From an uncultured Planctomycetota bacterium (GTDB lineage Bacteria; Planctomycetota; Planctomycetia; Isosphaerales; Isosphaeraceae), in assembly GCA_963845755.1 (NCBI GenBank), contig CAWJTV010000011.1, positions 160,001 through 224,000 on the forward strand: a DNA stretch of 64,000 bases, given 5' to 3'. Within the stretch, counting starts at the first letter, position 1. Every line of letters starts with the position of its first letter. Shown here in pieces: positions 17,560 to 34,756 of this stretch. The notes under the pieces were generated by a model. That model saw nothing but the letters and a program-made list of their open reading frames with translations, was not told the origin of the DNA and did not search any database. Both the position numbers and the translations under genes were made by a program.

Positions 17560-20544
17560 ATGCGACACATTGCCATCCTCATGAATTGCTGGGTTCTCAC
17601 CTTCCTAATGGCGATGTCCCCCGTACATGGCCAACCCGCGTCGGCCGCGGGCCGGCCCGTGCGGCTGGAGGTGACGCGCGACACCTGGGTATCGGATGTC
17701 GGTCCGGAGAGCGACGGCAACAACGGCGGCGCATCGAGGCTCAAGTTCAAGAGCATCCAGGAAATGACCCTGCTTGACATCGATACCGCGCCGCTACGGG
17801 GGCGGACGATCCGATCGGCCGCGCTCCACGTGCGGCGATCGGACAACGAGCCGCTCCGGCGGGTGACGGTCGGCAGTATGGGAGCCGAGTGGTTCGAGGG
17901 AACGGGGAGCAGCTATTCGGTCCAACCCGGTGGGGCGACGTTTCGACGGCGACGGCACCCTGATTTACCCTGGTCGACCGGCGGGGGCGATCTCTGCCAC
18001 GTCATCCTGGGCAATGGCGGCACGACCTGGAGGATGGCGGACGCCTCCTCGCCCGATCGGGAGGGTTGGCAACGCGTGCTGGTCGATCCGCGGGTCGTGG
18101 CGGCCCGCCTGGCGGGACTCAGCCATGGTTTCCTCGTGTTCGACGACACGGGGTCGGAATGGGCCCGCAACGGAGAGACGTTCACACAACGGATTTTCCC
18201 CAACCGGTTCGTCTACAGCCGTCAACAGAATCGCTCGAGTGCTCCCTATTTCCACGTCGAACTCGGGCCGGACGATCATCAACCGCCTGCGGCCCCGAGC
18301 GGCCTGAGGGTCGCATCCCAGACGACCCAACTGCCCGCCGGCGAAGCGATGATCTCGTGGGTTACACCCCGCGACTCCGGCCCGGCTGGCACGCTCGGGT
18401 TTTTCGTGGCAATCGAGGGCCGGCCATTGCCACGCGAGCGGATTCCGATGGCCGGCGCGGTGGGCGAGCGAGTCGAGATGCTGCTTCGCGATGTCGAGTT
18501 AGCCCCCGGAGCGACGGTCACGCTGTCGGTGAGGGCTGTGGACGGGGCCGGAAATCTCGGGCCGGCGGCGACGGCCCGCTTCCAGGTCTCGAATCGCATC
18601 CCCGCGCCGCTTCCCCAGCCGAGACCGGCCACCGCGATGCGCCGTGGCGCGACGCCGGCAAGACCGCCCTCCTGGGAAGTCGCCTCAATCCCCACGCTCA
18701 TCGCCATCCTCGACGAGCTCGACAAAATCCAAGCCGACACGGGCGAGTTAGTCCCCTCCCAGCCCGATGGATACCTGACCGCCAATCATCTCTGGGACTC
18801 CGCCGCTCGACGGGTCACGCTCCATTCGGCGCGGAACGAGTTCGTCGCCTTCCAGGTCCTTCTCCGCTCTCCCGTCCCGGTTCTCTCTGCTTCGATCTGC
18901 GCCGAGTTGGTCTTTGACGGTCCAGTCGGCAAAGCGATCCAGGTCGGGATCGGCCGCTATCACCCGGTTCGTTCGCAGTTGGGCCCATTCCCCGACCCGA
19001 TCGTTCCACTGGATTTCCCCTTGCCCGACGACGCGGTTGCCGCGAAAAACTTGAGTTTGCACGCCGAGGTTTACGTCCCGCACCACGTACCCGCCGGGGA
19101 GTATGTCGGGACGCTGACATTGTTGAACGCACGGCGGGGCGGCGCAGTGCCCCTTGCGCCTGGCCGTGACGCTTCGGGTCTGGGATTTCACCTTGCCCGA
19201 TCATCTGAGTTTCCTGCCCGAGATGAACTGTTACGGCCTTCCGACGAACGAGCGCGACTACTACCGACTGGCACACCGGCACCGGACCGTATTAAATCGC
19301 GTCCCCTACAACCAGAGCGGACAGATGGCGGACGGCTGCGCACCGAGATGGGACGCGCGCCGGCTCGATCTCGAGTGGTCGGACTGGGATCGCCGATTTG
19401 GCCCGCTGCTGGACGGGTCGGCGTTCGCGGACCTGCCGCGCAAGGGAGTACCGGTCGAATGCTTCTACCTGCCTCTGCACGAAAACTGGCCGACTCCGAT
19501 GGAGGGCTATTATCAAGGCGACTACTGGGCCGATCAGGCCTTCCCCGAGTCGTATCGCCGGGCGTTCGTCGCAGCCTCGCGGCGGATCGCCGAACATGCC
19601 CGAGCCAAGGGATGGACCGAGACGCTCTTCCACGGTTTTCTCAACAACAAGAACAACTTCAAGGAGCGCGGCTGGTCGAGAGGATCGTCTCCCTGGCTCC
19701 TCGACGAGCCGGCTAACTTCCAGGACTACTGGGCGCTGCGATACTTCGCTCGGGCCTTCCACGAAGGGATCAACCAAGCCGTGGCGGAGGGCCCCGCAGA
19801 CAAGAGGCCCGTGCCGCGTCTGGTGTTCCGCGCCGACATCTCCCGGCCCCAGTGGCGGCGAGACAGTCTCGACGGCCTGATGGATTACCACGTGGTCGGC
19901 GGGGCGATGCGAACCTATCCCTGGCTGGTCTTCGACCGGAAGCGGGCCTACGGCGAGATCGTGGTCGAGTACGGATCGACCAATCCGGTCGAGGGCTCGA
20001 ACCTCCAGCCGGTGGGTTGGTGCCTGGACGCCTGGTCGCTCGGGACCGATGGCGTCCTCCCCTGGCAGACGGTGGGGGCGCCGGGTCGTGGGACCGGGCC
20101 GACGAGTTGGCGTTGTTCTATCCGGCCGCGGGCGGGTTGCGCGCCGAGCAGGGGCGGGAGACCCGCGCCCCACACGAGGGGGTGATTCCGTCGGTTCGCC
20201 TCAAGGCGTATCGCCGCGGGCAGCAGGACGTGGAGTATCTGACTCTCTGGGCGCGCCTGCACCACGAGCCGCGTTGGGCCGTCGGCCGGCAGGTGCGGGC
20301 GTCGCTGGGCCTGGTTGGCGTTCGCCGGGGCACCGGGATCGCCGGCGCCGAAGATGCCGGCCGGATCGACTATACCCGACTCCGCCCCCAGGACCTCTGG
20401 GCCTTGCGAGTCGCGATCGGCGAGGCGATCTCACAGGCCCGGCCCGCCCCGGCGAGCAAGCTCGTCGACTTCCGCACCCCGCGCCGCGACCCGGAGCACC
20501 TCCCGCAGGCATACGTTGCGGGCGATCCGGGTCGGGACCGATGA
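17560..20544 (+). CDS. Large secreted protein, FN3-like plus GH123/DUF4091-like, frameshifts near 19150 and 20075
   Basis: Signal peptide; ARNEFVAFQV, LRVWDFTLP, and C-terminal PSVRLKAYRRGQQDVEYL (DUF4091-like). Three ORF pieces join. Confidence 0.65.
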
Positions 20545-20589
20545 ACGGCCGAGGGCGGCCAGTCCTTGTGATGTCCTCGGCCATGCTGG

Positions 20590-20675
20590 AAAACCTGAGA
20601 GAGAAAACCGGCACCCTCTTGCGGGCGCCCTTTTCATGGTGTACAAGACGGCCGTCTGGCATGGTTCGGTAATCG
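20590..20675 (+). promoter_or_regulatory. Putative promoter region of ncRNA unit 1 (duplicated at about 21035-21115)
   Basis: agaaaaccggcaccctcttgcgggcgcc..gtgtacaagac aligns with agaagccggtaacctcttgcggcgcc..gtgcacaaaac upstream of unit 2. Confidence 0.45.
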
Positions 20676-20940
20676 ACTCTCGGCATCTGAGAGGACAGGT
20701 CTAGCTCGGTGCTCTGCACCAGGACGGCGTTGCGCCGCCCGAGCGTATGGCTGGTCATGCTGCACAACGAAGGCTGTTTCAGGCCCGCTGATCCCCCGGA
20801 CAGTGCCCGGTATGTCGGCGGTCCTGGGCCAACCCCGCCGATCGTGGTTCCGCCGACATACCGGGCACTGTCCGGGGGGCGGGCCAGAGAGCCTTCGATG
20901 TCCCAGGTCTTGTGGTAGATGTCTCTTGGATGCCGAGGGT
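20676..20940 (+). ncRNA. Retron msr-msd-like ncRNA, copy 1
   Basis: Terminal a1/a2-like inverted repeats (actctcggcatc..gaca..tcta / tagatgtc..gatgccgagggt). Candidate branching G at 20704 in tAGC. Two msr hairpins (GGTGC-tct-GCACC; CGGCG-ttg-CGCCG) closed by gctcgg/ccgagc. Perfect 29-bp msd stem 20793-20821/20850-20878 with outer stems. Confidence 0.8.
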
Positions 20941-20972
20941 GGGTTGCCGCGTGAATCAACGGGCAGCCCACC
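20938..20972 (+). terminator. Hairpin 3' of ncRNA copy 1 (terminator or processing hairpin)
   Basis: ggtgggttgcc / ggcagcccacc with no U-tract; a homologous hairpin follows copy 2. Confidence 0.4.
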
Positions 20973-21118
20973 TGCCCTATCAAGCCTCGTGTTTCAATAA
21001 ATCAACAATCGGTGCCAGGGTCGTCCACCCGTCGTGTCTGAAATCGAAAAGAAGCCGGTAACCTCTTGCGGCGCCTCGGGATTAGTGCACAAAACATCCG
21101 TTCTTTGTCGTGACGATC

Positions 21119-21375
21119 GAGCATTTGGGAGGACAGGTCTAGCTCGGTGTTCTGCACCAGGGCGGTGTTGCGCCGCCCGAGCGTATGGCTGGTCATGCTG
21201 CACAACGAAGGCTGTTTCAGGCCCGCTGATCCCCCGGAAAACTTCCGGCATGCGGGCGGGCCTGGGACAACCCTGCCGGTCGTGGTTCCGCCCGCATGCC
21301 GGAAGTTTTCCGGGGGGCGGGCCAGAGAGCCTTCGTTGTCCCAGGTCTTGTGGTAGATGAGACTCCGCGATGCTC
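21119..21375 (+). ncRNA. Retron msr-msd-like ncRNA, copy 2
   Basis: Homologous to copy 1 at +438 bp. a1/a2-like gagcat..ggag / ctcc..atgctc; candidate branching G at 21142; perfect 29-bp stem 21231-21259/21288-21316; 12-bp outer stem acaacgaaggct/agccttcgttgt. Confidence 0.8.
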
Positions 21376-21376
21376 A

Positions 21377-21411
21377 GGGTGGGCTGTCTCGATAACCTCG
21401 AGCAGCCCCCC
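21377..21411 (+). terminator. Hairpin 3' of ncRNA copy 2
   Basis: gggctg(t)ctcga / tcgagcagccc. Confidence 0.4.
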
Positions 21412-21498
21412 TACCTCTCAAAACATCACGTGGGTCAGAGTTTCCGGGCTGACGACCCATTCGTGTGGGGCTGGAAAGCCTGATCTATATTATCGGTT

Positions 21499-24400
21499 AT
21501 GAGGCACACTCTCGTGTTGACTGGACTCAATCTGGACGACGTCCAACGCGCCTGGGAGTCACGAGACCTCGAGCTGACCAGGGTCGTCCTCGAACTGGCC
21601 GGCCAGCCCGACAAGCCGCCCGCCACGCCTCCGCGCGAGGGCGCGCCGACGTTCGCCAAGTTCGTGGCTGAACTACATGACCAGGCCTTCGCGCAAAACC
21701 CCCGAGGAGCAGAAGCACTATCGAGTCGAGGGGATGCAGGCGCTCGAATCGCCGACGGCCGAAGGTCCTCTTCCCGACCGGCTCCGGATTCATGTGATCA
21801 TCGCGGCGCTCTGGGAAGACAACGGTCCCTTCGCCCGGTCGTGCCTGCTTGAGATCATCGCCCAGGTGCCGTTGCGCTATGGTCCGTGGCGAGCGCTGAA
21901 GCGGATCTTCAAGGAGGCCGAGGCTCGCGACGACACCGAGGTCTTTGGGCGCTGGCGGCTAGAGTGGATTCGTCGCAGATCGCGCAGGAGATCACCGGCC
22001 GCACACTCGACTATCTCCGCCGTCGTGCCTGGCGATACCTGCGCCGAACGGGCCAATCCCGTCCCGCCTGTTACGCCGACGTGGCCGCCGACGTGCTGGC
22101 TCGCTACGAGGATACCACGCCCTGGCATAACACCTGGGTCGCCAACCACATTTTCTACCATGAGACGGGCGACTATACCACTTCGAACTTCCATCTCAAG
22201 AAGGGGCGGTCGGACCTGAACGACCGCGCGTTCGCCGCGCTCTGGCAGCGGAGCCCGCGCCCGCTGTTCGGCCTGCTGGAGCGCGCGCCGGAGCGACCGG
22301 GTCCGGCAGTTCGCCGCCGACTGTTTGAAGGCCGACTTCCGCGCCTCGCTCCGCGAGGTCGAGCCCGCCTGGGTGGCCCGGCTGGTGAGTGTGGGCAGCG
22401 GGCCGGCGGACGAGTTCGTCGTCTGGGTGCTGAACAATGTCCCGAAGTTCGAGCAGGGCGCGTTTCGTTCGCTCGGTCTGCACCAGGCGGTGCTCCGGCT
22501 GTTCGACTCCCCCTCGGACACGGCCGGAGCCTATGCCGCCGAGTACGCCCGCACCCACGCCCGCGACCTGCCGGTGGATGAACTCGTCCGCCTGGTGGAC
22601 AATCGCCATGGCGCCGTCCGCAAGCTCGCCGTCGACCTGATCCAGGAGCGTGACCCGCGCAAGAAGATCGGACTGGATGCCTGGGGCCGGCTGCTCGAAT
22701 CGACCCGTGGCCAGTCGTTGGCAGCGACGGCTCTTCGCAAGCACTTCAGCGCCCGCGAGCTCACGCCCGACTGGTTCCGCGAACGGCTGTTCACGCCGAA
22801 GCAGGATCCGTTCGGGCACGTCCAGAACCTGCTGCTCGAGATTCATCCGGCCGAATCGCTGGGGCCGGGTTACTTCGTCGGACTTATCGAGATGGCCCAT
22901 AAGCAGGAGGACTGGACTCCGAACCGCGTCTTCCAATTCACCCAGTTCATCAAGGAGCAGCTCGCGCGGTTCGACCTCAACGCGCTCGATCGCGACGTCC
23001 TCCGCCGTCTCTTCCTGAAATCGTCCGCCATGACGATCATCCCCTGGATCGAGGAGGGCCGGCTCAAGCCCCAGGTGCTGGGCCTCGACTTCCTCAAGGC
23101 CGTGGCGTTTCACCCCGACTGGGAAACCGACCCCTGGATCGTCGAGCTGCGCCGGAACGGCCCCGCCTGGGCGCGCGAGCTGACGTTCGACGAGGGCATG
23201 TCGGAGAAGGTCCTTGGCTGGCTGGGCGACGTCCGCCGGTTTGCGCCTTCGGATATGGGGTTTGCTTGGTTGTTGAAGTTGGCGGCTCGGGGCGAGCCGC
23301 GATATCACAACTTCGCCGTCGAGACGATGATCAAGGGTTTCACACCCGCCGACTTCGCACCGAGCGTCCCCGAAGCCGCCGCGGCGCCTGCTGCTGGGCC
23401 GGCGACGGTCGACCTCGGCGGCGCCTCGTTCCTGTTCACGGGCAAGCTGGCGACGATGCAGCGCAAGGAGGCCGAGGACAAGGTCCGTCGCGCGGGCGGC
23501 TCGGCGGCCTCGAGTGTGACCGCCAAGCTCCATTACCTCGTCATCGGCGATGAGGGCTCGCCGCTGTATGGTCACGGCAAGAAGGGCGCGAAGCAGCTCA
23601 AGGGCGAGGAGCTCAATGCCGCGGGCGCGAACATCCGGATCATCTCGGAGACCGCATTCCTGAAGATGCTCGCCGGTCATGCGCCACGGGCCTCTCAGGG
23701 CGACGCGCTCGCCGGCGCCGAGCGGCTCTGGGAGATGGCCATCGTCCCCGGCGCGGCCGACGCCCCGCTCGGCCGGTTCGCCATGAAGTTCATTCTTCGC
23801 CATCACCCCGACATCGCTCTGGCTCAGACCGATCGACCTGTCGATCCCGGTGCCGAGATCCCCGCTGAGTTCCTCGGCTTCGATCGAGTGAGACCCTTGT
23901 TCTCGGAGACCCGCAAACCGCTCCGCGACCTGGCGCTGGAGCTGGCTCGGTGGGAGTTCGCACGCTGGTCTCCATCGGCCGACGAGCTGGTCCTTCTGGC
24001 CGAGAATCCGCACGCGGATGTTCGCCGGTTCGTGGCCCAGTCGCTCCTGGCCGACGACGCGCCCGAGCATCGCCGATACCGGATCGACCTCGAGTCGCTC
24101 ACGTCTGCGGCGGTCTTCCGTTTCTGCGAGTCGGCTGACGAGTTCGACGCGCGCCCTGGGCATGCAGCTCATCGACCGATCGGCCCGGTTCCGGCAGCCC
24201 GAGGAACTCTTCCGCCTGACCGAGAGCCCCGATCGGAGGGTCCGCGGATTCGTGATCCGGACGCTCTGGTCGCTCTATCGCGACCGGGGAATCACCGAGG
24301 GCTGGAGGCCGTACGTCCCGCCCGCGACGACCGTGGGCGCGGCGGCGAAGAAGGCCGCGCAAGTTCAGGCCGACAGCCGGGGTCCTGGTCCTCCAGCCCG

Positions 24401-24743
24401 GCCCGAGCAGTTGCCCGCGAGCCTGCGCGACCTATGGGGCTTTCTGCGTCGCACCCTGTTCGAGATCCCCCCACCGCGCCCCGAGAAGCGCGACCCGGAA
24501 GCCGGGGAATCGGGCGAACGGCTCAAGCCGTTCCCGGCGCGGCGGGCGAAACTGGCGCTGGTCGAAACCCTGCGCGACCTGGCCCTCGAGGATGCCGACT
24601 TTGCTCGCGGTGCGCTGCCGATCCTCGAGGAGTTCATGGTCTCCCGGGGCGTGACGGAGAGAGCCGCGTGCCTGGTCGCCGTCACCCGGATTCGACATAC
24701 CCACGCCGTGCTCCGCCTCGCAAGCGAAGGAGGTGCCTCATGA
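21499..24743 (+). CDS. Retron-associated large helical (HEAT/ARM-like) protein with central BRCT domain, several frameshifts
   Basis: Pieces 21499, 21677, 21886, 22325 and 24018 join. BRCT signature SFLFTGKLATMQRKEAEDKVRRAGGSAASSVTAKLHYLVIG near 23420-23550. Stop overlaps the next ATG (ATGA 24740-24743). Confidence 0.75.
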
Positions 24744-27700
24744 CCGCGCCGGCCGATAAGCACCTCACCTACCGTGGCGAGATCAAGGGAGCCGTCGGCG
24801 TCGGCGGCACGCTGGCGTTTGTCACCGTCCATCCCGAGGGTCAACCCACGGCCCTCTACCGGCTCGATGCGGACAAGCTGACGCTCGACACTGACCCGTT
24901 GCCGAGAGGCGGCACGACGATCACGGCCGTCGGCGAGAGCCTCTTCCTGGCCGGCGGTGATGGTCAGGTCTACGTGGGCTCGATCGCTTCGGGAGAGCCG
25001 AAACCGCTGGGCGCCGCCCTCGATATCCCGGCGACGGCCCTGGCTCCACTGGCCGATAGCCGATTGGCCGCCCTCGTTGGATCGCGCGTCGTCATCCTGG
25101 CCACCAAGAACGGCAAGTCGGTCCAGACGCTCGACCTGCCCGAGCCGGGGACATCGTTGGCGGCCGACGCGACAGGGCGCTGGCTGGCGGTCGGGACGGC
25201 GAAGGGGACTGTCCTGGTCTTCGACGCCGAGGACAAGCCTGAGTTTTTGCTGAGTGCTTCGGAGCGGCTGCACGAGGGTGCGGTCAGTGCGATCTTGTTC
25301 GAGCCGGACGAGCTGCGGTTTCTCTCGGCGGGGGCCGACCAGAAGCTCCTGTTGACCCACGCCCGCGGCAAGCTCGAGCCCGAGGACAAGGGGCGAGGCA
25401 ACAACCACACCGACGTCATCAAGGCGATGATCTGGGGGCCCGGCGATCGCCTCTACACGGGAGCCTTCGACGCCGCGATCAAGTCGTGGCCGCGGGTGGG
25501 CGCGATCAAGCCGGCGACGACCAAGGACGGGGTCGGCCGCGTCGTCGCCCTGGCGATGGTCCAGGTCCACGAGCGGCCCCGGCTTGTTGGGGCGTGCGAA
25601 GACCAGACGATCCGGGTTTTTCCGGTCGACGCGGCGGGCAAGATCGGCGAGCTGGCACACTGGGTTCGTGACGCTTACGCCCGGGCCAAGCACGAGCTGT
25701 CGCAGGACGATCCCACCCGTCGCGAGGAAGCCCTGAAAGCCCTCGCGGGTTACGCCGACACGCGCGCCCTGGGCCTGATCGCCGAGCAGGCCGACGCCGA
25801 CGCCGACCACGCGCTTCGCCTTCATGCGGCCGACCTCCTCGGCGCGTCCGGTCATGCCCGGGCCGCAACCCTGCTGGAGAAGCTACTCGGACATCGGGAC
25901 GAGGCGGTCCGCGTCTCGGCGTTCCGGGGACTACGCCGGCATCTCGGCGAGACCGACCTCCGCCCGATCGACCTGGCGCTGAAGGCGGATAAGCCCGACG
26001 TCGGCCGGCTGGCCGTGCAGGCTCTGGAAACTCTCGCGACGAAGGACGACCAGGCCCTGGCGCGGCTGACCGACGCCCTCAACGCCCGGGTGCCCGAGGT
26101 CCGCCTGGCGGCCGTGGTGAGCCTCGAATCGGCCGCGGACCCGCGATCGCCCGAGTCGAACCTGGCGGCGCTGACCTCGAAGCATGCCGATGTCCGCCGC
26201 TCCGCACTGCTGCGACTCTACCGGCGCGGGCTGCTCGGCGAGCCGGCCGTCCAGTCGGCGCTGCGGCGCCGGGCCGAGGACGCCGATCCCGATGTCCGCC
26301 GCACCGCGTTCTTGCTCGCAATCCACACCCGCGAGCGGCTGCTTCAGGCCCTTCGGTCGCGCGATCCCGACTTGCAGCGACAGCTCGTCGAGTTGGAGGA
26401 CACGGGTCATGGCGAGCCAGTAGGGCCAGATGTGCCGACCGATCGAGGTGCAGACGGCGCTCTGGTGCTCACAGAGCACCCTACGGGGTCGCAGAAAAAG
26501 AAGGCCAAGCCCGCCAAGACGACCTCCACCACGGCGGAGCCATCTCTCGAAGACTTCGACTTCGAGCCCTTGCTCCAGGCGACGGCCAGCCGGTGCTGGA
26601 CACCTGCCTCCGGGGGGCGCGAGGGCTGGCGATGCTGGGCGATCCGCGGGCGTTCGGCCTTCTACTCCAACTCAGCCGGGAAGAGGACAAGACGGCCCGC
26701 GCCGAGGTCTGCCGGGCGATGGCTGCGCTCGACGATCCGCGCGCGGCCGAGCGGCTCCGCTCGATGCTTCACGACCCGGAGCCCGAGGTCCGCGACGCCG
26801 CCTTCACCGCCATGGCCCGTCTCCACCAAGCCAGTCCCTTGGCAGCCGCCGAGTCGGGCCTGAACGCCTCGCATGAAGATGTACGCCGGCGCGGTCTCCA
26901 ACTCCTGGTCGAGCAGATCCGCAAGGCCAAGACCGGAGGTGCCGCCGGGCCGGCCCTGTCGCTGCTCTCGCGCGCCCTCAACGACAGCTTCCCGGCGGTC
27001 CGGTCCGAGGCGTTCAAGTCGGCGCTGGGCCTCCACGCGGGCGGCGCCGGCGCGGGCACTCTCCGGTTCGCCTTGCAGAGCGTTCATGCCGACGTTCGCC
27101 GGGAGGTCCTCACAGAGGTGATGGCCCAGGTGGGCGAGCCCTGGGGCTGGGACCTCCTGCTGGAGTTCTTCAACGATCCCGACCCGGCGCTGCGGGGCGA
27201 AACGTTCGAGTTTGCCCTCAAGAAGACCAGAGGGCTCGAGTTCCTCGAGGCGGCGCTCGCCTCACGATACCCCGACCTTCGCGAGCGGTCGGTCGCCGAG
27301 CTGGTCAAGAAGCACACCGCCGCGGCACAGGCGCTGCTGGTCCGGGCACTCGACGATGAGGACCCCGAGGTTCGACTTGCCGCGATGAAATCGCTGGTCG
27401 ATGCCGACGCCCTGCCTGCGCTGATGGAGGCCCTCGGAAACACGCATCCCGACGTGTGCCTCAGCGCGGCCAAGGCCTTCGCCCGTCATGGCGACTCCCG
27501 GCGGCTCGAGCCGCTCCTCGTCCTGGCAACGGCCCCGGAACCCTTGGAGCAAGAGCGTCGTGACGACTGGCTCAAGCAGGCCGAGTCGGCCCTGGACGGC
27601 TTGGGTGAGCTGGGCGATCCGGCCGCGTTGGCGCACGTGATCCCGCTCCTGGACAGTCCGCGGACGGCGATCCGCCTCCAGGCAGCTCGGGCCCTGGTCT

Positions 27701-30700
27701 GGGTGTCTCGGCCCGGAACCACCGACGCGCTGCGACAGGCGATCCAGCACGCCGACGTCGCCGTGAAGTACCACGCCGCCAAGGGCCTCGCCTTTACCGG
27801 CGATGGCTCGGTGGTCCCGCTCGTGTTTTCCGAGGCGGCCGGCAAGATCGTGAGCGTCGGCGAGCAGATCGCCGCCGCGCTGGCCGTCGGGGCCGCGGGC
27901 GAGGACAGGCTCGCCGTCTCTCTGGACGACACGAATGAGGACGTCCGCGACCGCGCCCTGGTCCTCTTGATGATGCTCGAATGGAAGGACCCGGACGGCA
28001 CGGCCGCGCGTTGCCTCGCCTGCCTGGCGAGCCGGACGCCCCGGATGCGCCTCACCGCCGCCCGAGCACTCGAAGCCCTGGTCGAGCCCGGCATCTTCGA
28101 GCCCTTCATTATCAGTCTGGTCAACGAACGGGGCGACAAGCCCGAATGGAAGATCGCGGCGCCGACCGTAAATGCCTTCGCCGAAATGCTCGTCCATGGC
28201 GACGCGCAGCTCCGGGCGCGCACGGCTCGGCTCTTTGCCCGGCTCAATGAGAAGGAACAGGCCGCCTTCGACCAGGCCTGGGCGGTACACGAGCAACGGT
28301 TTGCCCGCGAGCTCGCCGAGCTAATCCGTCAGGCCAAGGCACGGAATCCGGTCGCGCCGCGATACACGCGCGATCAACTCCGTGAGCTGGCCTTCGGGGC
28401 GTATGTCGGCTTAGTCCGCGAGCAGGGCAGCTCGAAAGGCAAGGGTCAATCCGGCACCGATCCGGCCATCGTGCGCGTCCGGCAGTCGGCGCTGGACCGT
28501 CTGCTCGCGCTGGCGGGCGCCGATGCACATCTCGCCGCCGCGTCGCGGCCGGTTTTCGTGCAGGCGCTCGGCGATCCGAACCAGGCTGTCCGGTTCCAGG
28601 CGTTCGAGCAGGTCCAGAAGATCGGGCTGGGAACAACGGAGCTGGCCGCCGAGGCGCTGGCCACCGGGCACGTCAACCTGGGCGTCAAGGGTCTGGAGTT
28701 GCTCGCCGGCGACCGTTCCGAGGCCGAAGGCGCGGCCGTGCTCGAACGGGCGATGCTGGCACGTACCGACGACCTGGCCATCGAGTCCGCCAAGCTGTTG
28801 ATCGCGCGTCGAGGGGCCGTGGCCGTGGCCAGCCGTGCTGTGGAGGCCACTCACCCACAACTCCGCAACCAGGCCGTCAACTGGCTTGCCGCCGAATACG
28901 ACAAGGACCCTGGCGCCGGGAAAGCGCTACGGTCGGCCCTGTCCTCGCGATATCAGGCCGTCCGTGAAGCGGCGGCGTTCGCGCTAGCCATCAAGAAGGA
29001 CCCCGCCGCTTTCGAGCCCCTGGTTGGGATCCTGGCCACCGCGTCCGTGGGGAGGCAACAACAACGTGTCATCCAGACGATGGAGACCCAGGGCGACCCG
29101 CGCGCCGGAGGGGTCTTCCTCGACCGGATCGAGAACGACCCGGCCGGGACGGCGATGGTCAACGAGCTGCTCAAGGGAGTCGGCCGGTTCCGGCGCCCCG
29201 AGACTGCCGATCGGTTGCTGAGTCACTGGGAGAAAGACACGAAACGACACGATGCCGTCTTCAACGCCCTGGTGACGATCAGCGGCTACGATCAACGGAT
29301 CGAGGACACCGAGGACGAGCAGCCCGAATCCTTCTGGCTAGAGAAGCAATTCCCTCGTCATGACGATGTGCTCGCCCGGTTGATGGACCGGGTCTCGGCG
29401 CCGGCCGAAGCCAAGTTCCTGGCCCGGCTGATTCCCGGGGCCCGCTGGGCGCGCGGCAAGCCGGTCGATCCCGTCCTGTCGGGTTTGATCAACCACGCCA
29501 ATGACGAGGTCCGGCAGAAAGCCGTCGAGGCCATCGGCTGGCGGCTTCGCAAGCGCGGGAGCGAGGCCGAGCCTCTGAAGAAGGCCCTCGCGCATCGCGA
29601 CACGATTACCCAGTTCCTCGCCGCCGAGGCGCTGGCCAAGGCCGGCCGCGGCGATGGGATGAACGTGTTGCTGGCGAGCATCGACTTCGCCACCGACCTG
29701 GATATTCGCCGCCGTGCCGTGCTCGCCCTTGGCGAGTTGGCCGACGAGCGGGCGCTGGACGTGCTTCTCAAGCTTGCCGGCGAGGATGGCCACGCGCTCC
29801 AGGAGCAGGCCCTCGAGGCCATCGGCCATCTGGGTCGCTCTCAGCGGGCCGACGAAGTGTTCAAGGTCCTGGAGCGGCACGCGAAGGGAACCGCCGGCAT
29901 AGCATGGCGGGCCCTCAACGGCCTGCGCTGGCTCAACACGCGGGCGGCGTGGGAGGTCATCCGGGCACGGACGTCCGACCCATCGTGTCCGTTCTGGGAA
30001 GAATCCGTCAGTCTGCTGGGCTACAACAACGATCCGGCTACCCGCGACTTGCTGCTCCGTTTGCTCGCCAAGGAGGCCGATGTGGTCGAGGCGGCAATGG
30101 CGGCCGCTCGCCGTCTCTGGGGCCAGGACTCGCTCGAGCCGGATTACGCGGTAGTCCAGAACGAAGACCTGGATCATCTGGATGATCACGAGAAGATACT
30201 GGCCCGGCTCCGCGACCGGGGCGAGCCGCGGCGCATCTTCGAGATCCTCCCGAAGTGTCCCGCCCCGGTGCGCGCGACGCTCGCCACCGGACTGTTGAAT
30301 CGGGCCGAGCCGCCCGTGGCCGAGGCGCTAGCCGCGCTCGACAGCCCGGACCCGACCACCGCCGGGACGGCAGCCCACATCCTGGGCCGAGCCGGCGCCG
30401 GACGGCCGAGGCCGGGCCGGCGGTGATCAATGCGCTGGTGAAGTGGCGAAAGCTCTGGGAGGAACAACGGCCGTCGTTCGACCGGAGCGTCGCCGGCCTG
30501 ATCCGCCGGAAGAACGAACAGGCCGACGGGCTCACCGCGTGCGTCCGGGATCTGGTCTGGGCGGCGGGCCGGCTGGGCGTTGGCACCGAGTCCCTGGCGG
30601 AGGCCGCCACCGCGCGGCCGGACGACGACGAGTATCAGCCGATCCGCCTGGCCGCCGTCCTGGCCCTCGGCTCGGCCACGATGTCCCCGGGCGCGATTGC

Positions 30701-31172
30701 GGCCCTGGAGTCGGCCGCGTTCACGGGCGCCCCCGAGATCCGCGCCGCCGCCGCGCAGGCCATCGCCCGGCGCGACCCCGAGCGGGCCGCCAGGCTCGCT
30801 GACCAGTTCCTGTCCGATCGCGTCGGCTTCCACCGGCTCACGCTCGACGGCGCGAGGGACCTCGAGGAGACGCTCCGAACTGCCGCGCGCCAGGTCCATT
30901 ATCAAGGCATCGTCCTCCCGGGCCTGATCGATCGCGGCGACGTCTCGGCGCTGGCCGTCGTGGCCGAGGATCGCGCGCTGCCCGAGGCCGCGCGGCTGGG
31001 GGCCGTCGAGGGGCTGGCCGCGATGGCCCGGGAGCCGGCCGAAGACGTACTTCGCAGGGTCGGGATGAGCACCGTCGAAGACGAGGAATTGCGCAAAGCC
31101 GCCTGGCGCGGGCTCCGCCGCTCGAAGCGGGCGCGGAAGACCCGGGCGACGAAGGTCGAGGTGAAGTCATGA
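24740..31172 (+). CDS. Retron-associated giant protein (~2100 aa): N-terminal WD40-like beta-propeller plus many HEAT repeats, frameshifts near 26590 and 30400
   Basis: AGGAGG ribosome-binding site. WD-like blades (HEGAVSAILF..FLSAGADQK; HTDVIKAM..LYTGAFDAAIKSW) followed by repeated HEAT motifs (D.D.EVR.AA). ATGA overlap with the next gene. Confidence 0.8.
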
Positions 31173-33039
31173 GCCCTGCCGACGAGACTCGCGAAGAGAC
31201 TCAGGAGCCGGCCGCAGCCGAGATCGCGACGACCGAGGTCCGCATGGCCTATGCCGGGATGAGCACGCTGGTCGCCACCGAGGAGACCGCGGGCTGACCC
31301 TGGCGAGCAATCTCCGCCGCGACCCAGTGCGGTTCGAGGCCACCATCAAGGAGCCGCTTCGGTTCCGCGAGGCGATGGCCGCGCTCTACGCGGTTGTGGC
31401 CAGCGACTTCCGCTATGTGCCCAAGGACCGGACCGCCTATGTGGCCTACAGCCGGATGCGCCGGGAGTCGTCGAGCCTGAATGCTTGGCAGGCCCAGCGC
31501 GCCTATTTCTCCTGGCTGCTGCGCAACGACCCATTGGCGTTTGTAATCCTCGACCCCGTGATCACGGTTCATCCGGATCAGGTCCTTTTCGAGGTCTTCA
31601 GCAAGGATGAGGGAGCCTATGCGAAGTTGGGCGTGGATCGCGACGCCTTCGACCACGCCGAGACGCCGGCCTTCGGCACGACGAACGTGGACTTCAGCCA
31701 GTCGCTCTATCAGGGCTTGCAGCAGATGCGGAGCTACCGCGAGACCCGGCTGAGCATCGGCCAGGAGGGCGTGAAGTTCGCCACGACTACCGCGGGCGAG
31801 GTCCTGGAGAAGCGGATCCGCGTGCCCGACTCATGGCTGCGCGGCTTCCTCCAGGTCCAGTCGTCGGCCGCGCTGCCGCGCGACCGGTTCGACCTGGCGC
31901 CGGTGGACTTGTACAACGCCCTGCGCCACCTGCGGCTGAACGCCGATCGCAAGGGCCAGCGGCGGGGTTTGCGGATCGAGCTGGTCCCGGGCGAGCCGCC
32001 GCGCCTGGTGCTCGAGCCTTGGAACGTGGTGATCCCCGCGACGACCGGCACGTTCAAGGGGAAGGCCGCGCGGGCCGTCCGCATCTGGGGCCGGCGCCGG
32101 CTGTCGCTGCTGCACCGGTTTCTCCCGTTCACGGAAGAGGTTGAGGTCCACGTGCTGGGCAGCGGTCTGCCGAGCTTCTGGGTCCTGCGTGCGCCTGGCA
32201 TGACGTTGACCCTCGGCCTGACCGGCTTCACCGCGGCCAACTGGTCGCAGGCGATCAACTTCGATCTCCTGCTGCCGCGGAAGACCGCAACGACGACCCA
32301 GCCGCTCGACGCGGTCCTCGCCCATCTGCACGAACACTGGTCGGCAGGGGCCGGCGAGCTGGCCCGCGCGACCGGCCTGGCCTGGCCCGCCTTGACCGAG
32401 GCGCTCCAACTCGGCTGCCAGCAGGGGAAGATCATGTATGACCTCGCGAGCGACGTCTACCGATTCCGTCCGCTGACGGACGTCCCGCTCGACCCGGCCC
32501 GGCTGGAGTTTCGCGACAGCCGCGAGCGGATCGCCCACGACCTATTGATCCGCCGCGGCGCGGTCAAGATCGTCTCCGAGAACCGCATCCCGGGCACCGG
32601 CCTGGAGCTGACCGGCCAGGTCACCGTGACCGAGGACCGGCGCGACTATCGTCCCCAGATGCTGCTCGCCGACGAGGGCCAGGTAACCCGCGCCGACTGC
32701 ACCTGCACGGCGTACCGCAAGCAGGGCCTGAAGGCCGGCCGGTGCGTCCACCTGGTGGCGTTGCGGCTGGCCTACGCCGAGCAGGAGGCCCGCCGGCTCA
32801 AGGGGCTCGACCCCTTGCAGGCGATCGCGGTCGAGACCCGGACGTACTCGCGCCGGCACCCGGCCGGCGAGGAAGTCTATCAAGTCTCGCTCGAGCGTCA
32901 ACGACTCAAGATCCGATGGGGCCAGGATGACCAGCCCCGGCGATTGCAGACCTTGACGTTCGACACCGTGGAAGACGCGCGCGGGGCGTTCCTCAACCGG
33001 GCTGCCGATCTGGAAGCGCGCGGGTTCCTCTCGCTCTAG
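31169..33039 (+). CDS. Retron-associated SWIM zinc-finger protein with C-terminal WGR-like domain, frameshift near 31290
   Basis: DPVITVHPD..FEVFSKDE..YA, PDSWLRGFLQVQ; SWIM CxC..CxH (ADCTCTAYRKQGLKAGRCVHLVAL); WGR-like YQVSL..LKIRWGQ..QTLTF...EDARGAF...EARGF. Confidence 0.8.
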
Positions 33040-33059
33040 CCGTCGGCCAGGTTTTCCTG

Positions 33060-33180
33060 AAAACAGGTGGAATAACAGGTGGATTGGGATCAATCGTACA
33101 CTATTTTGTAAAGGCGTTTGTCGAACCCATGAATATATTATATTTTATCATGAATTTTGATAATTGTCTGAAAATAGAAC
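33060..33180 (+). promoter_or_regulatory. AT-rich putative promoter upstream of the retron RT, with a 10-bp direct repeat
   Basis: AACAGGTGGA at 33062-33071 and 33074-33083, then a strongly AT-rich tract (atgaatatattatattttatcatgaattttgataatt). Confidence 0.5.
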
Positions 33181-33239
33181 GTGGGCCGAGCGGCCCTCTT
33201 CGATGACCCGGGCGCAGCGCGCGAAAGGACGGACGAGCG

Positions 33240-34582
33240 ATGTCGCGACTCCAGCAATCCGACCCGATCGCCTTGTGGCGTGCCATCGAGCAGGCTGGCG
33301 GCGTGCAGGCGTATGTGAACGCCCAGCTCGTTGAGCGGGGGTTCCTGGTCCAGCGCCGGGAGACGGACAAGCTATCCGATCGGGAAAAGGACGCTTACAA
33401 GAAGTCGCTCAAGGCCGAGGCGGAGGAGCGCCGGCGGTTGAGTCGCGAGGCCTGGAAGGCCCACAAGGCCACGCACATCGTCCATCTGGGCGAGGGCGTG
33501 TTCTGGACCGAGGGTCGTGGTCACGACAAGTGGGACCTACCCAACGCCGAGGCCCGCGCCGCCGAGAACGAGCTCCCGCCGCTGGACTCGGCCAAGCAAC
33601 TGGCCGAGGCCCTGGGCCTGACCATCGCCGAGCTGCGCCGGCTCGCCTTTCACCGCGATGCAGCCACCGTGCTCAACTACCGACGGTTCACGATCCCCAA
33701 ACGCGATGGCTCCGCGCGGGCCATCTGGGCCCCGCTGCCGCGGTTGAAGACAGCCCAGCGCTGGATCTTGCACAACATCGTCGAGAAGCTGCTCGTCCAT
33801 GGCTCGGTGCATGGCTTCCTCCCCGGTCGCTCGACGCTCACCAACGCCGCCGCCCACGCCGACCCGAAGCTGGTGGTGAAGGTGGACATCAAGGACTTCT
33901 TCCCCACCGTGACGTTCCCTCGGGTCAAGGGGATCTTTCGCAAGGCCGGCTATCGCGAGGAGGTCGCCACGCTGCTGGCGATGATCTGCACCGAATCCCC
34001 CCGCGAGATCGTCGAGCTGGAGGATAAGACGTACTACGTGGCGCTGGGGCCGCGCTGCCTGCCCCAGGCGCACCGACGAGTCCGGCGCTAACCAACACGC
34101 TGGGCCTGCACCTCGACCGCCGGCTCAGCGGGCTGGCGAAGAAACTCGGCTGGCGCTATACCCGCTATGCCGACGACCTGACCTTGAGCCTGCCCAGGAA
34201 CCACCAGGGCCCGCCCCAGGTCGGCACATTGCTCGGCTCGATCCGCCGGATCGTCGAGGACGAAGGTTTCGCGATCCACCCGGACAAGACGGGCGTCCAC
34301 CGTCGCGGGGGCCGGCAGATGATCACCGGCCTGGTCGTCAACGGCGGATCGCCGCGCAGTCCCCGCGACTTCCGCCGCAGGCTCCGAGCCGCCATCCATA
34401 ACCGGACCAACGGCAAGCCCTCACCGGACGGCGAGAGCCTCTCGACATTAATCGGCATGGCGGCCTACGTGTATATGTCTGATCCTGTGCGAGGAGAGAA
34501 GTTCCTGGACGCGCTCCGGGAACTGGATCGAGCACAGGTATCGGCCTCGGCGCGGATCGAGGGGCCGCCGCCCCAGACATGA
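33240..34582 (+). CDS. ret: Retron-type reverse transcriptase (Mx162-like), single frameshift near 34067
   Basis: IPKRDGS.R.I, region X NAAAH, KVDIKDFFP, LPQ(G)APTSP, YTRYADDL (34166-34177), HPDKT, region Y ITGLVVN, LRAAIHN. Long N-terminal extension (AIEQAGG..KATHIVHLGEGVFW) like myxobacterial retron RTs. Confidence 0.93.
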
Positions 34583-34756
34583 TCGCCGTCGTCATTGGCA
34601 ACCATCTCCCAAGTTGTTACGCTGAAGAAAGGAGTGATCAAGAGATGGATGTCGAGACTCGTTAACACCTGGAATACCCCTCCAATGGCCGGATCTCAAG
34701 CGGTCGTTGTGCTCGCGAGGACCCCATGCGAGCGGTCCAGGCTTGGCCCCGCGAAG

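Follow-up and report, generated by a model that had tools for sequence, protein, structure and literature searches.

Two long perfect hairpins stand close together in the 64,000-nt stretch of planctomycete DNA analysed here (the window), and this locus raises the question of which kind of element carries them and why their stems differ in sequence. The hairpins belong to two tandem units on the + strand, on which all features given below are also located. The units are delimited by a direct repeat of 239 nt (D1; 20683-20921 and 21121-21359; 89% identity; spacing 438). In unit 1, the left arm (20793..20821) and the right arm (20850..20878) of the stem form the perfect inverted repeat I1, whose 29-nt arms are 100% complementary and enclose 28 nt; in unit 2, the left arm (21231..21259) and the right arm (21288..21316) form I2, which has the same dimensions and the same 100% complementarity. 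An earlier interpretation of the DNA letters, hereafter the sequence-only reading, had reported that the left arms of the two units differ at 8 of 29 positions within the same 29-bp stem and 28-nt loop. This is the case (mismatched sites 9, 11, 12, 13, 14, 19, 23 and 24) and, since I1 and I2 are both perfect, all eight differences are compensated. The same reading described the flanks as nearly identical and the proposed msr part as altered by few substitutions. Indeed, with the variable stem excluded, the two units show 8 differences over 171 aligned core positions, and the msr substitutions comprise (i) a C/U change that yields a G-U pair, (ii) an A/G change that converts an A.C mismatch into a G-C pair and (iii) a second C/U wobble. 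The folding energy of each hairpin is -74 to -75 kcal/mol, compared with -39 +/- 3.6 kcal/mol for shuffled sequences (z about -10), a value equalled by 0 of 200 shuffles. The pair is not an assembly duplication either, as had also been argued, since differing tandem copies were found in 9 further genomes.

The hairpins had been taken for the msd stems of a retron, and very probably they are, in view of the same-strand type XIII genes located downstream and of the a1/a2 repeats, the TAGC motif and the msr hairpins. Indeed, the units head a same-strand row of about 14 kb in which PADLOC models identify: the first giant HEAT/ARM gene (HEAT-ARM_XIII, PDLC02921; 21499..26863, a match that extends into the start of the second), whose product contains BRCT, WD40 and HEAT domains (Pfam HEAT_2, WD40, BRCT); a second giant HEAT/ARM gene (PDLC02919, a 1972-position model; 26593..31172; E 0 and 1.4e-47); a SWIM_XIII gene, the primary type XIII partner (PDLC02972; 31327..33039; E 1.1e-185); and a retron reverse transcriptase (RT) gene, RT_XIII (PDLC02956; 33240..34582; E 1.1e-96). 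PDLC02956 outranks the other retron RT models on the latter gene, and a genome search gave E-values of 3.5e-95 and 4.1e-55. Pfam analysis of the ORFs neighbouring the units returned no RT, which emerged from the PADLOC models and the genome search. The RT contains the motifs YADD (in its second frame), NAAAH and ITG; the retron-specific motifs of these enzymes are named NAXXH and VTG.

Several of these genes are interrupted in this assembly. The first HEAT/ARM gene lies in four frames (21499-21852; 21677-22219; 21886-22581; 22325-26863), the second is split in two (26593-30426; 30255-31172), and the RT occupies two frames (33240-34091; 34064-34582) separated by a gap of one nucleotide within a run of G at about 34067. 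The homologue of the first HEAT/ARM gene is an unbroken frame of 1805 aa at locus L044 and measures 1108 aa in Singulisphaera acidiphila; an RT frame of 472 aa is intact in the congener. Since rpoB of the same assembly is likewise broken into two frames, the splits are probably assembly errors; they may alternatively reflect a decayed operon. Sequencing runs each contained less than half of the words of the region, with a maximum of 0.26 among DNA runs.

In a textbook retron, the RNA gene adjoins the RT. Here, about 12.3 kb and three large genes separate the units (end at about 21412) from the RT (start at 33240), so that the two are not contiguous. This organization recurs in other genomes: of 30 further genomes that gave a DNA match, 26 have an RT_XIII match on the contig and strand of the RNA gene, 11.7-13.1 kb downstream of it; in three, RNA gene and RT are on separate contigs, and the last match is a chance 22-mer. 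All 18 named loci have the first HEAT/ARM gene 3' of the RNA gene, and every genome has just one locus, which invariably heads this operon. A second retron family is present in the same genome (contig C3), again with two tandem units, conserved ends and a variable stem middle, a pattern that holds across its 21 aligned copies; its units are 2-3 kb from their own RT. Within 25 kb of a further RT/SWIM locus, the third (contig C36), perfect inverted repeats of at least 18 bp are absent.

The position of the units, directly 5' of a HEAT/ARM gene and 12 kb from the RT, is also what would be expected if the hairpins were a leader, an attenuator or a small RNA for the HEAT/ARM genes, the RT using some other, unseen RNA. 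This explanation could further draw on the strong hairpin that follows each unit and on the lack of a match to Rfam retron families (a search of 19000-23500 with E up to 1 gave two chance microRNA-hairpin matches, both below their gathering scores). It is nevertheless very improbable: no other perfect inverted repeat of at least 18 bp exists in the 17 kb of contig C11 that hold the operon, the second family shows the same design close to its own RT, and the units contain the full set of retron RNA parts, namely a1/a2, TAGC next to a terminal helix, an msr of short hairpins and, in the msd, a long one. An msr of one to three short hairpins and a single long msd stem-loop are what define a retron RNA in the account of PMC7736814.

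The anatomy of unit 1 is as follows. A conserved box (20605..20647), recognized through direct repeat D4 (20605-20624 / 21052-21071, 85%) and its conservation, contains TTGCGG (20619-20624), a 17-nt spacer and TACAAG (20642-20647); its counterpart 5' of unit 2 lies at 21052..21093 (D4 and alignments), and the box precedes 3 of 3 units in genome G034. The box of unit 1 looks promoter-like; since a sigma-70 consensus scan found no promoter site, it is conservation that suggests this role. The 5' arm of the terminal inverted repeat I3, a1 (20667..20693), and its partner a2 (20923..20949) are 27 nt long and 78% complementary, with a duplex energy of -54.7 kcal/mol. Among the 35 copies scored out of 37 (two without the anchor motif were left out, and the a2 window of one scored copy was mis-anchored), 34 are predicted to form their own a1/a2 duplex (-24 to -58 kcal/mol), and the letters of a1 and a2 vary from copy to copy though the duplex is retained. 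The next segment (20700..20705) comprises UCUA, which pairs with UAGA (20916-20919) in helix 1 (99.3% paired in the 37-copy alignment), and then TAGC (20702-20705). Directly after the UCUA/UAGA helix, TAGC is found in 37 of 37 copies, with A, G and C invariant and T nearly so. Its guanosine, G20704, is a candidate for the 2'-OH priming guanosine, which in retrons is located at the inner terminus of the a1/a2 stem and, most often, in a TAGC context (PMC6868368).

The msr domain (20705..20743) consists of two hairpins (20708-20712/20716-20720 and 20722-20729/20733-20740) closed by CUC/GAG. Its helices 2-4 are 96-100% paired in the 37 copies, with both-sided changes at 4 pairs, and they contain 21 G-U cells and 1 A.C cell among 592, an excess of G-U over A.C which indicates that the RNA is the + strand. 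The msd hairpin (20764..20901; helices 5-6 invariant or covarying) has a conserved base (20764-20792 / 20879-20901) around the variable stem and a conserved 28-nt tip (20822..20849; largely invariant columns). This tip holds a small conserved hairpin of the AACCCCG...CGGGGUU type (helix 9, 99.5% paired), and the composite msd hairpin reaches about 55 pairs. The predicted minus-sense product of 149 nt, folded as DNA, has an energy of -66.2 kcal/mol (z -12.2). A conserved 3' msd segment of invariant columns (20902..20919) ends in UAGA, and reverse transcription is predicted to start near G20915. Overlapping a2, a G+C-rich hairpin (20934..20973; -29.4 kcal/mol, z -3.9), the 5' half of which is kept in many copies (alignment columns 303-314), may act as a terminator or in processing; it lacks a T run and was not among the results of a terminator scan, which returned two unrelated sites only. 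Unit 2 (21113..21377, from D1; nhmmer E-value 4.7e-64) extends from a1 (about 21113-21131) to a2 (about 21362-21377), with an a1/a2 duplex of -31.7 kcal/mol, a TAGC at 21140-21143 with the candidate priming guanosine G21142, and a G+C-rich hairpin on its 3' side (21376..21412; -26.2 kcal/mol, z -6.0).

Open reading frames on both strands of the units were considered and rejected as coding sequences, because lineages differ by 1-nt indels inside conserved parts. The msr part is covered by contigs from 4 soil or wetland RNA libraries belonging to 4 studies, in which DNA, strand and ends are not readable. Coverage by RNA contigs tracks sequence conservation, so the uncovered spacers are no valid control, and these contigs lend weak support to the retron reading.

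The comparison across genomes was based on 37 copies from 26 Isosphaeraceae genomes; matches covering fewer than 200 of the 239 nt were dropped (L034 and L041 at contig ends, two partial matches in L040 and a fragment in L042), and the 18 named loci L043-L060, being the same sequences as loci with G handles, were counted once. The genomes contain 1-3 units, with a single unit in 16 of 26 and arrays of 2-3 in 10 of 26. Among cultured carriers, Singulisphaera acidiphila DSM 18658 has one unit and Tautonia sociabilis has two. Over all helices, 99.3% of cells are paired, compared with 80.8% after shuffling and 34-44% when partners are slid. In the stem, both sides have changed at 26 of 29 pairs, 1063 of 1073 cells (99.1%) are Watson-Crick, and the stem measures exactly 29 bp in 36 of 37 copies, while the flanks and the stem tip are conserved across the 37 copies. 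The sequence-only reading had held that selection keeps the structure while the stem diversifies. Its structural part is borne out by these figures, and in the alignment of homologues the stem is indeed far more variable than the flanks; the variation itself may not be driven by selection for diversity. Among ten metagenome copies on 9 contigs, one has a bulge, one has a mismatch and two have arms that fail to pair (L066, 19/29; L068, 22/29); the latter two may be chimeric assemblies.

The few stem cells that are not Watson-Crick comprise 3 G-U and 5 A.C, so that the strand asymmetry of the msr is absent from the stem. G-U pairs make up 3 of 1073 stem cells and 21 of 592 cells in the msr helices (Fisher p 1.8e-7). 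The stem thus shuns G-U, unlike helices formed as RNA only; this fits a stem that also forms as DNA and counts against a leader or small RNA.

Conversely, the palindromes might act purely as DNA, whether by extruding a cruciform, as sites of recombination or as a small mobile repeat, the conservation around them being incidental. Template switching during replication can hold 29-bp palindromes perfect, and short fragments of the units do exist elsewhere in the genome. Such an explanation is extremely improbable, however, as the G-U asymmetry of the msr marks a + strand RNA, each genome has a single locus, always at the head of the same operon, no transposase was found beside the units, and a search of viral contigs gave 0 matches to the unit family. 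The fragments in question are two orphan msd pieces (C15:218050-218105 and C18:11876-11917), which stop 1-3 nt from the predicted start of reverse transcription; that they derive from reverse transcription is a guess. Lampson and Rice reportedly described, in 1997, msDNA-like repeats in the chromosome of Nannocystis exedens, to which these pieces can be likened, although only two short fragments are present here.

There remains the question of why the stems vary. Between genomes, the raw divergence at four-fold sites of the adjacent gene is 0.27-0.60. The stem differs by 0.12-0.40 where four-fold divergence is 0.27-0.31, and by 0.16-0.39 when this genome is compared with its congener. For the RNA core, the figure is only 0.02-0.14. 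The stem therefore diverges about as fast as four-fold sites between genomes, and its variation may need no selection for diversity. A paired stem would be expected to change more slowly than free sites, yet it changes equally fast, which counts against an explanation by drift.

Paralogues within a genome give a different picture. Copies 2 and 3 of G034 show changes at 3 of 44 flank positions and 15 of 25 stem positions (p 2.6e-6), and the paralogues of L028 (flank 7/46, stem 11/25) and L016 (flank 11/44, stem 13/25) were compared in the same way. Near-identical, fast-evolving flanks combined with unrelated stems favour a divergence specific to the stem in these paralogues, and the pairs of G034, L028 and L016 are not easily explained by pure drift.

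Against this background stands the conjecture of the sequence-only reading that the stem is a decoy or a sensor. The stem middle would then be a specificity module favoured by selection for its diversity, with every msDNA form offering a different double-stranded DNA to phage proteins that bind, cut or modify DNA, and arrays of 2-3 units would broaden what is sensed. The G034 copies 2 and 3, which share near-identical flanks (including a1/a2) and have unrelated stems, speak for it, with a tendency in that direction in L028 and L016. Unit 2 of the window and the unit at the corresponding position in the congener G046 have matching flanks and wholly different stems. Arrays whose stems differ have arisen separately in two retron families, and the stem keeps pace with four-fold sites in spite of its pairing constraint. 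In other retron types, moreover, msDNA can sense phage proteins that target DNA, as reported for example in 10.64898/2026.10.13.758329. On the other hand, 16 of 26 genomes have a single unit, the stem is not faster than four-fold sites between genomes, and the literature search found no phage defence by any type XIII retron, a type that looks vertically inherited rather than island-like (PMC7736814). Neither stem recurs in the genome above chance level (the best matches being 15 nt without mismatch, or 19 nt with a single one, E 0.17), and one 20-mer per stem had 0 exact matches in viral contigs, so that spacer-like copies of foreign or genomic DNA were rejected. Restriction-site-like palindromes were also rejected, since neither palindromic 4-mers (60 in the arms for 48.8 +/- 6.6 expected, P 0.06) nor 6-mers (16 for 11.7 +/- 3.4 expected, P 0.135) are significantly enriched. 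On balance, the specificity module is an unlikely explanation, though one with specific observations on its side.

We consider it probable that the units are tandem msr-msd template genes of a type XIII retron in a member of the Isosphaeraceae and that the middle of the stem is a paired spacer of fixed length that drifts nearly neutrally. According to this model, each unit, with its own upstream box and its trailing G+C-rich hairpin, would probably be transcribed as an RNA of about 280 nt, the ends of which (a1 and a2) would pair. The RT encoded about 12 kb downstream would prime on the guanosine of TAGC and copy about 145-150 nt into a single-stranded DNA that folds as a long hairpin. A single RT would thus serve one to three templates, and its products would be alike in the msr, the stem base and the stem tip and unlike in the stem middle. 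The base and the tip would be the parts read by proteins, and the 22-25 bp between them would be a spacer, the total length being fixed at 29 bp. The sequence of this spacer would be free, and full Watson-Crick pairing would be required in both the RNA and the DNA forms, hence a stem middle that drifts about neutrally; mismatches would be quickly removed by selection, by arm-to-arm copying or by exchange between paralogues.

If the template RNA of planctomycete type XIII retrons lies about 12 kb from the RT, surveys confined to the vicinity of RT genes would miss it. The data also set apart the stem base, the tip and the msr, which proteins probably read, from a spacer of fixed length. That this spacer remains fully Watson-Crick, although synthesis alone should not need it, suggests a role for the DNA duplex itself.

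Among known systems, the closest are the type XIII retrons (RT clade 10; Retron-Mxa1/Mx162, Mxa2/Mx65, Sau1/Sa163 and Nex2/Ne144), whose RT, SWIM and HEAT/ARM partners match those found here. Mx162 was the first retron ever found, and in the DNA stem of Mx162-type msDNAs a variable region was reportedly described by Rice and Lampson in 1995. The type was delineated in the classification of Mestre et al. 2020 (PMC7736814), in which the SWIM zinc-finger partner that marks membership is cluster 114 and a variant has two HEAT/ARM genes ahead of the SWIM gene. With a 241-nt transcript and a 162-nt msd (PMC6868368), Mx162 has an RNA of similar size and a long msd hairpin like the units described here. 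The vertical inheritance of type XIII (PMC7736814) fits the family-wide spread of the units, and the SPIRE survey lists type XIII RTs in Planctomycetota (n = 26; PMC13712802). No function of a type XIII retron is known in the literature searched. The present units differ from published type XIII retrons in their distance of about 12 kb from the RT, in their place at the far end of the operon and in their arrays of 1-3. The priming context is TAGC, in contrast to CAGC or GAGC in the myxobacterial members described in PMC6868368, and the clade 10 structure groups in the table of PMC7736814, as far as its text was available, are those of Firmicutes, Mx162, Mx65 and Ne144, a planctomycete group being absent.

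Retron-Eco1 (Ec86) is of another type, with a short stem and a single RNA gene adjoining the RT, but offers a functional parallel. According to PMC11754653, breaking its msd stem P4 mattered only at base and tip, and replacement stem sequences restored the msDNA yield provided that they paired. This behaviour parallels the stems described here, in which base and tip are conserved and the middle is free. In Retron-Eco1 the middle could be unpaired without loss of yield (PMC11754653), whereas it is 99% Watson-Crick in the natural copies; this maintenance of pairing in a part dispensable for Eco1 yield points to a need beyond synthesis.

Finally, engineered ncRNA arrays termed multitrons place tandem msr-msd units under one RT (bioRxiv 10.1101/2023.07.17.549397), and they resemble the present arrays in having a shared RT and an msd content specific to each unit. 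The loci could accordingly be imagined as natural multitrons with 1-3 template genes per RT, in which the DNA stems, constant in length, strictly paired and quick to change, would be interchangeable specificity cassettes, each msDNA form being read or attacked by a different invader protein, and the stems would be renewed by arm-to-arm copying and unit exchange so as to outpace the rest of the locus; taken as a whole, this proposal is doubtful. The text available for the multitron paper (10.1101/2023.07.17.549397) mentions no natural retron array. Multitrons were made for genome editing, whereas the arrays described here are natural and occur in 10 of 26 genomes as well as in a second family. 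Natural arrays with differing stems in two retron families thus provide a precedent for engineered retron arrays and an experimental handle on the function of the stem.

A 239-nt direct repeat is present at positions 20683-20921 (unit 1) and 21121-21359 (unit 2), with a spacing of 438 nt and an identity of 89%. Each unit harbors an inverted repeat made of two 29-nt arms separated by 28 nt (20793-20821/20850-20878 in unit 1; 21231-21259/21288-21316 in unit 2), and the folding of its hairpin is better than that of shuffled sequences by about 10 standard deviations. Of the 29 arm positions, 8 differ between the two units, and compensation is complete (8/8), because both inverted repeats are 100% complementary. 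Outside the variable stem, only 8 of the 171 core positions differ. The arm sequences, the eight compensated changes and the near-identical flanks reported in the sequence-only reading were thus all recovered.

The anatomy of the unit was examined in an alignment of 37 full-length copies from 26 genomes (one genome with three copies, nine with two and 16 with one), matches shorter than 200 nt being left out. On the given structure, 99.3% of cells pair, versus 80.8% after shuffling and 34-44% when the partners are slid. From 5' to 3', the unit is composed of the following elements: (i) an arm a1 of variable sequence, for which a duplex with the 3'-terminal arm a2 is predicted in 34 of 35 scored copies (one further copy had a mis-anchored a2 window, and two copies have no anchor motif), (ii) a UCUA/UAGA helix with an invariant TAGC, which is the usual context of the priming guanosine according to PMC6868368, (iii) two covarying msr hairpins, (iv) a long msd hairpin with a conserved base, then the 29-bp stem, then a conserved tip holding a small hairpin, and (v) a conserved 3' segment followed by a2. 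The msr hairpins contain 21 G-U cells versus one A.C cell (of 592), and this excess therefore marks the + strand as the predicted RNA strand. The complement of 20768-20916, taken as DNA, folds at -66 kcal/mol (z -12). A conserved promoter-like box lies 5' of each unit and a G+C hairpin 3' of each; consensus scans supported neither the box as a promoter nor the hairpin as a terminator. All the retron RNA features tested were found, except contiguity with the reverse transcriptase (RT). Together with the type XIII retron genes located downstream (PADLOC), they bear out the earlier msd assignment, and the units are very probably retron msr-msd template genes, as predicted from their sequence.

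Those downstream genes, all on the + strand, correspond to a type XIII retron in PADLOC models. Indeed, the window encodes a first HEAT/ARM protein (from 21499; PDLC02921), a second HEAT/ARM protein (to 31172; PDLC02919), a SWIM protein (31327-33039; PDLC02972, E 1e-185) and an RT (33240-34582; PDLC02956, E 1e-96) in which YADD is present. No reverse transcriptase was detected with Pfam among the ORFs nearest the units, and Rfam gave only chance microRNA-hairpin matches on the unit region. The RT and both HEAT/ARM genes are split into several frames in the assembly, the breaks being 1-2-nt indels relative to a congener. These breaks are probably assembly errors rather than decay, since the essential rpoB gene of the same assembly (C34:79366-83015) is also split, its model positions 4-632 and 634-1237 lying in two adjoining frames. 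A 718-aa ORF (17560-19716, +) that directly precedes the units has no Pfam or PADLOC match and no counterpart at 18 named loci.

Among the relatives, the unit was matched in 30 of 120 other genomes of the family, one of these matches being a chance 22-mer, and it occurs in 15 of 53 genera, the window's own genome counted. Named records place the carriers in Isosphaeraceae (Singulisphaera, Paludisphaera, Tautonia and Tundrisphaera). There is one unit locus per genome, the extras being short fragments only. In 26 genomes an RT_XIII match lies 11.7-13.1 kb downstream of the unit on the same strand, while in three fragmented assemblies the two are on separate contigs. At 18/18 named loci the unit is followed by the first HEAT/ARM gene, whereas the upstream genes are not common to them. 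Between the window and the congener G046, DNA homology spans only 20632-34588, a stretch that begins with the units and closes with the RT; beyond these positions both flanks are unmatched within the stretches compared, and the surroundings of the operon cassette may differ between the two species. The unit family was found on nine metagenome contigs and was not found in viral contigs. Orphan msd fragments of about 40-55 nt are also present in the window's genome (C15:218050-218105; C18:11876-11917), with similar ones in the congener and in another genome (G031). They match only the msd 3' part (right-arm end and conserved 3' segment), end 1-3 nt from the predicted reverse-transcription start, and could derive from msDNA insertion or represent copies that have decayed.

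In contigs from relatives in four soil/wetland RNA libraries (four studies), word depth is high over the conserved msr part and low over the msd 3' part, and some short pieces have flanking adapter sequence. These contigs lend weak support to expression of the unit, because their coverage depends on how conserved the sequence is, and neither strand nor level can be read from them.

Across the 37 copies, 26 of the 29 stem pairs are changed on both sides and 1063 of 1073 stem cells are Watson-Crick, so that the proposal of a structure kept while its sequence varies holds well beyond the window. The remaining cells comprise three G-U, five A.C and two other mismatches, both of the latter in a single copy with a 32-bp stem; in the other 36 copies the stem is exactly 29 bp long. 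G-U pairs make up a far smaller share here than in the msr helices (Fisher p 1.8e-7), and the stem has no strand asymmetry, as expected if pairing is needed in the RNA template and the DNA product alike. On this alignment, the predicted stem has a fixed length and strict pairing, whereas its sequence can vary freely. Ten metagenome copies, one of which duplicates a copy in the set, include six perfect stems, one with a mismatch, one with a one-base bulge and two with unmatched arms. The last two (L066, 19/29 pairs; L068, 22/29 pairs) may have arisen by true recombination or by chimeric assembly across the conserved tip; in L066, the start of the right arm is like that of the unit 3 type of G034, the genome with three units.

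Drift and selection for diversity were weighed by comparing between-genome divergence in the stem, the RNA core and the four-fold degenerate sites of the adjacent HEAT/ARM gene. The stem (0.12-0.40 among three Singulisphaera genomes; 0.16-0.39 between the window's genome and its congener, for a four-fold value of 0.35) is more variable than the core (0.02-0.14), as the earlier reading required. Against 0.27-0.60 at four-fold sites, it therefore evolves about as fast as free sites and not clearly faster. Some evidence against simple drift comes from paralogues: copies 2 and 3 of G034 differ at 15/25 stem positions versus 3/44 in the a1/a2 flanks (p 2.6e-6) and 3/171 in the core, and paralogues at two other loci (L028, L016) lean the same way. 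An exchange between units is suggested by unit 2 of the window, whose flanks are shared with the congener's unit 2 but whose stem has a distal half similar to the unit 1 type. The stem had also been proposed as a decoy or sensor for phage proteins. Palindromes are not significantly enriched in the stem arms (P 0.06 and 0.135), neither window stem matches elsewhere in its genome, and one 20-mer per stem had no exact match in viral contigs; these tests gave the decoy idea no support. Overall, it seems rather unlikely that selection for difference adds to the stem variation.

A scan for perfect inverted repeats near other RT_XIII loci of the same genome revealed two tandem hairpins on another contig (C3:103244-103795; about 4745-5300 of locus L071, minus strand), whose perfect stems measure 27 and 28 bp and whose tips measure 32-33 nt. 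Immediately downstream lie a SWIM gene (C3:101528-103167) and an RT (C3:99731-100536). The two hairpins have conserved flanks, tips and stem ends, whereas the middles of their stems are unrelated; this locus is a second predicted type XIII-like retron. Of 120 other genomes, 28 carry this second RNA family, which is found 2-3 kb away from an RT subgroup of its own; the congener has three copies. In 21 aligned copies the stem is likewise variable and compensated, but its length also varies. Arrays with differing stems are therefore a recurring trait of these retrons. A third RT_XIII locus, with a SWIM_XIII gene (C36:206989-211129), has the best RT_XIII match in the genome (E 1.5e-183); its RNA was not identified, and perfect inverted repeats of at least 18 bp are absent up to 25 kb away. 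The genome also contains 43 RVT_1 matches (including on contigs C41, C47, C13, C45, C7, C34 and C42), and sets with identical scores (e.g. four at 126.8 bits, five at 75.1 bits) suggest multi-copy RT-bearing mobile elements such as group II introns.

Neither a natural tandem msr-msd array nor a function of type XIII retrons was found in the open-access literature. Mx162-type msDNA was reportedly described in 1995 as having a variable stem region. Type XIII retrons, the SWIM and HEAT/ARM proteins that accompany them and their vertical inheritance have already been published, and Firmicutes, Mx162, Mx65 and Ne144 are the RNA structure groups named in their RT clade (PMC7736814); type XIII retrons are also on record in Planctomycetota (PMC13712802). 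The msd stem of Retron-Eco1 accepts new sequences provided that they pair, and base and tip alone matter for yield (PMC11754653). Engineered 'multitrons' (10.1101/2023.07.17.549397) are tandem msr-msd arrays as here, but man-made, whereas the present units are natural. In comparison, what appears to be new is the location of template genes distal from the RT, in natural arrays of one to three templates, and a fixed-length, strictly Watson-Crick and freely varying stem, across a bacterial family and two retron lineages.
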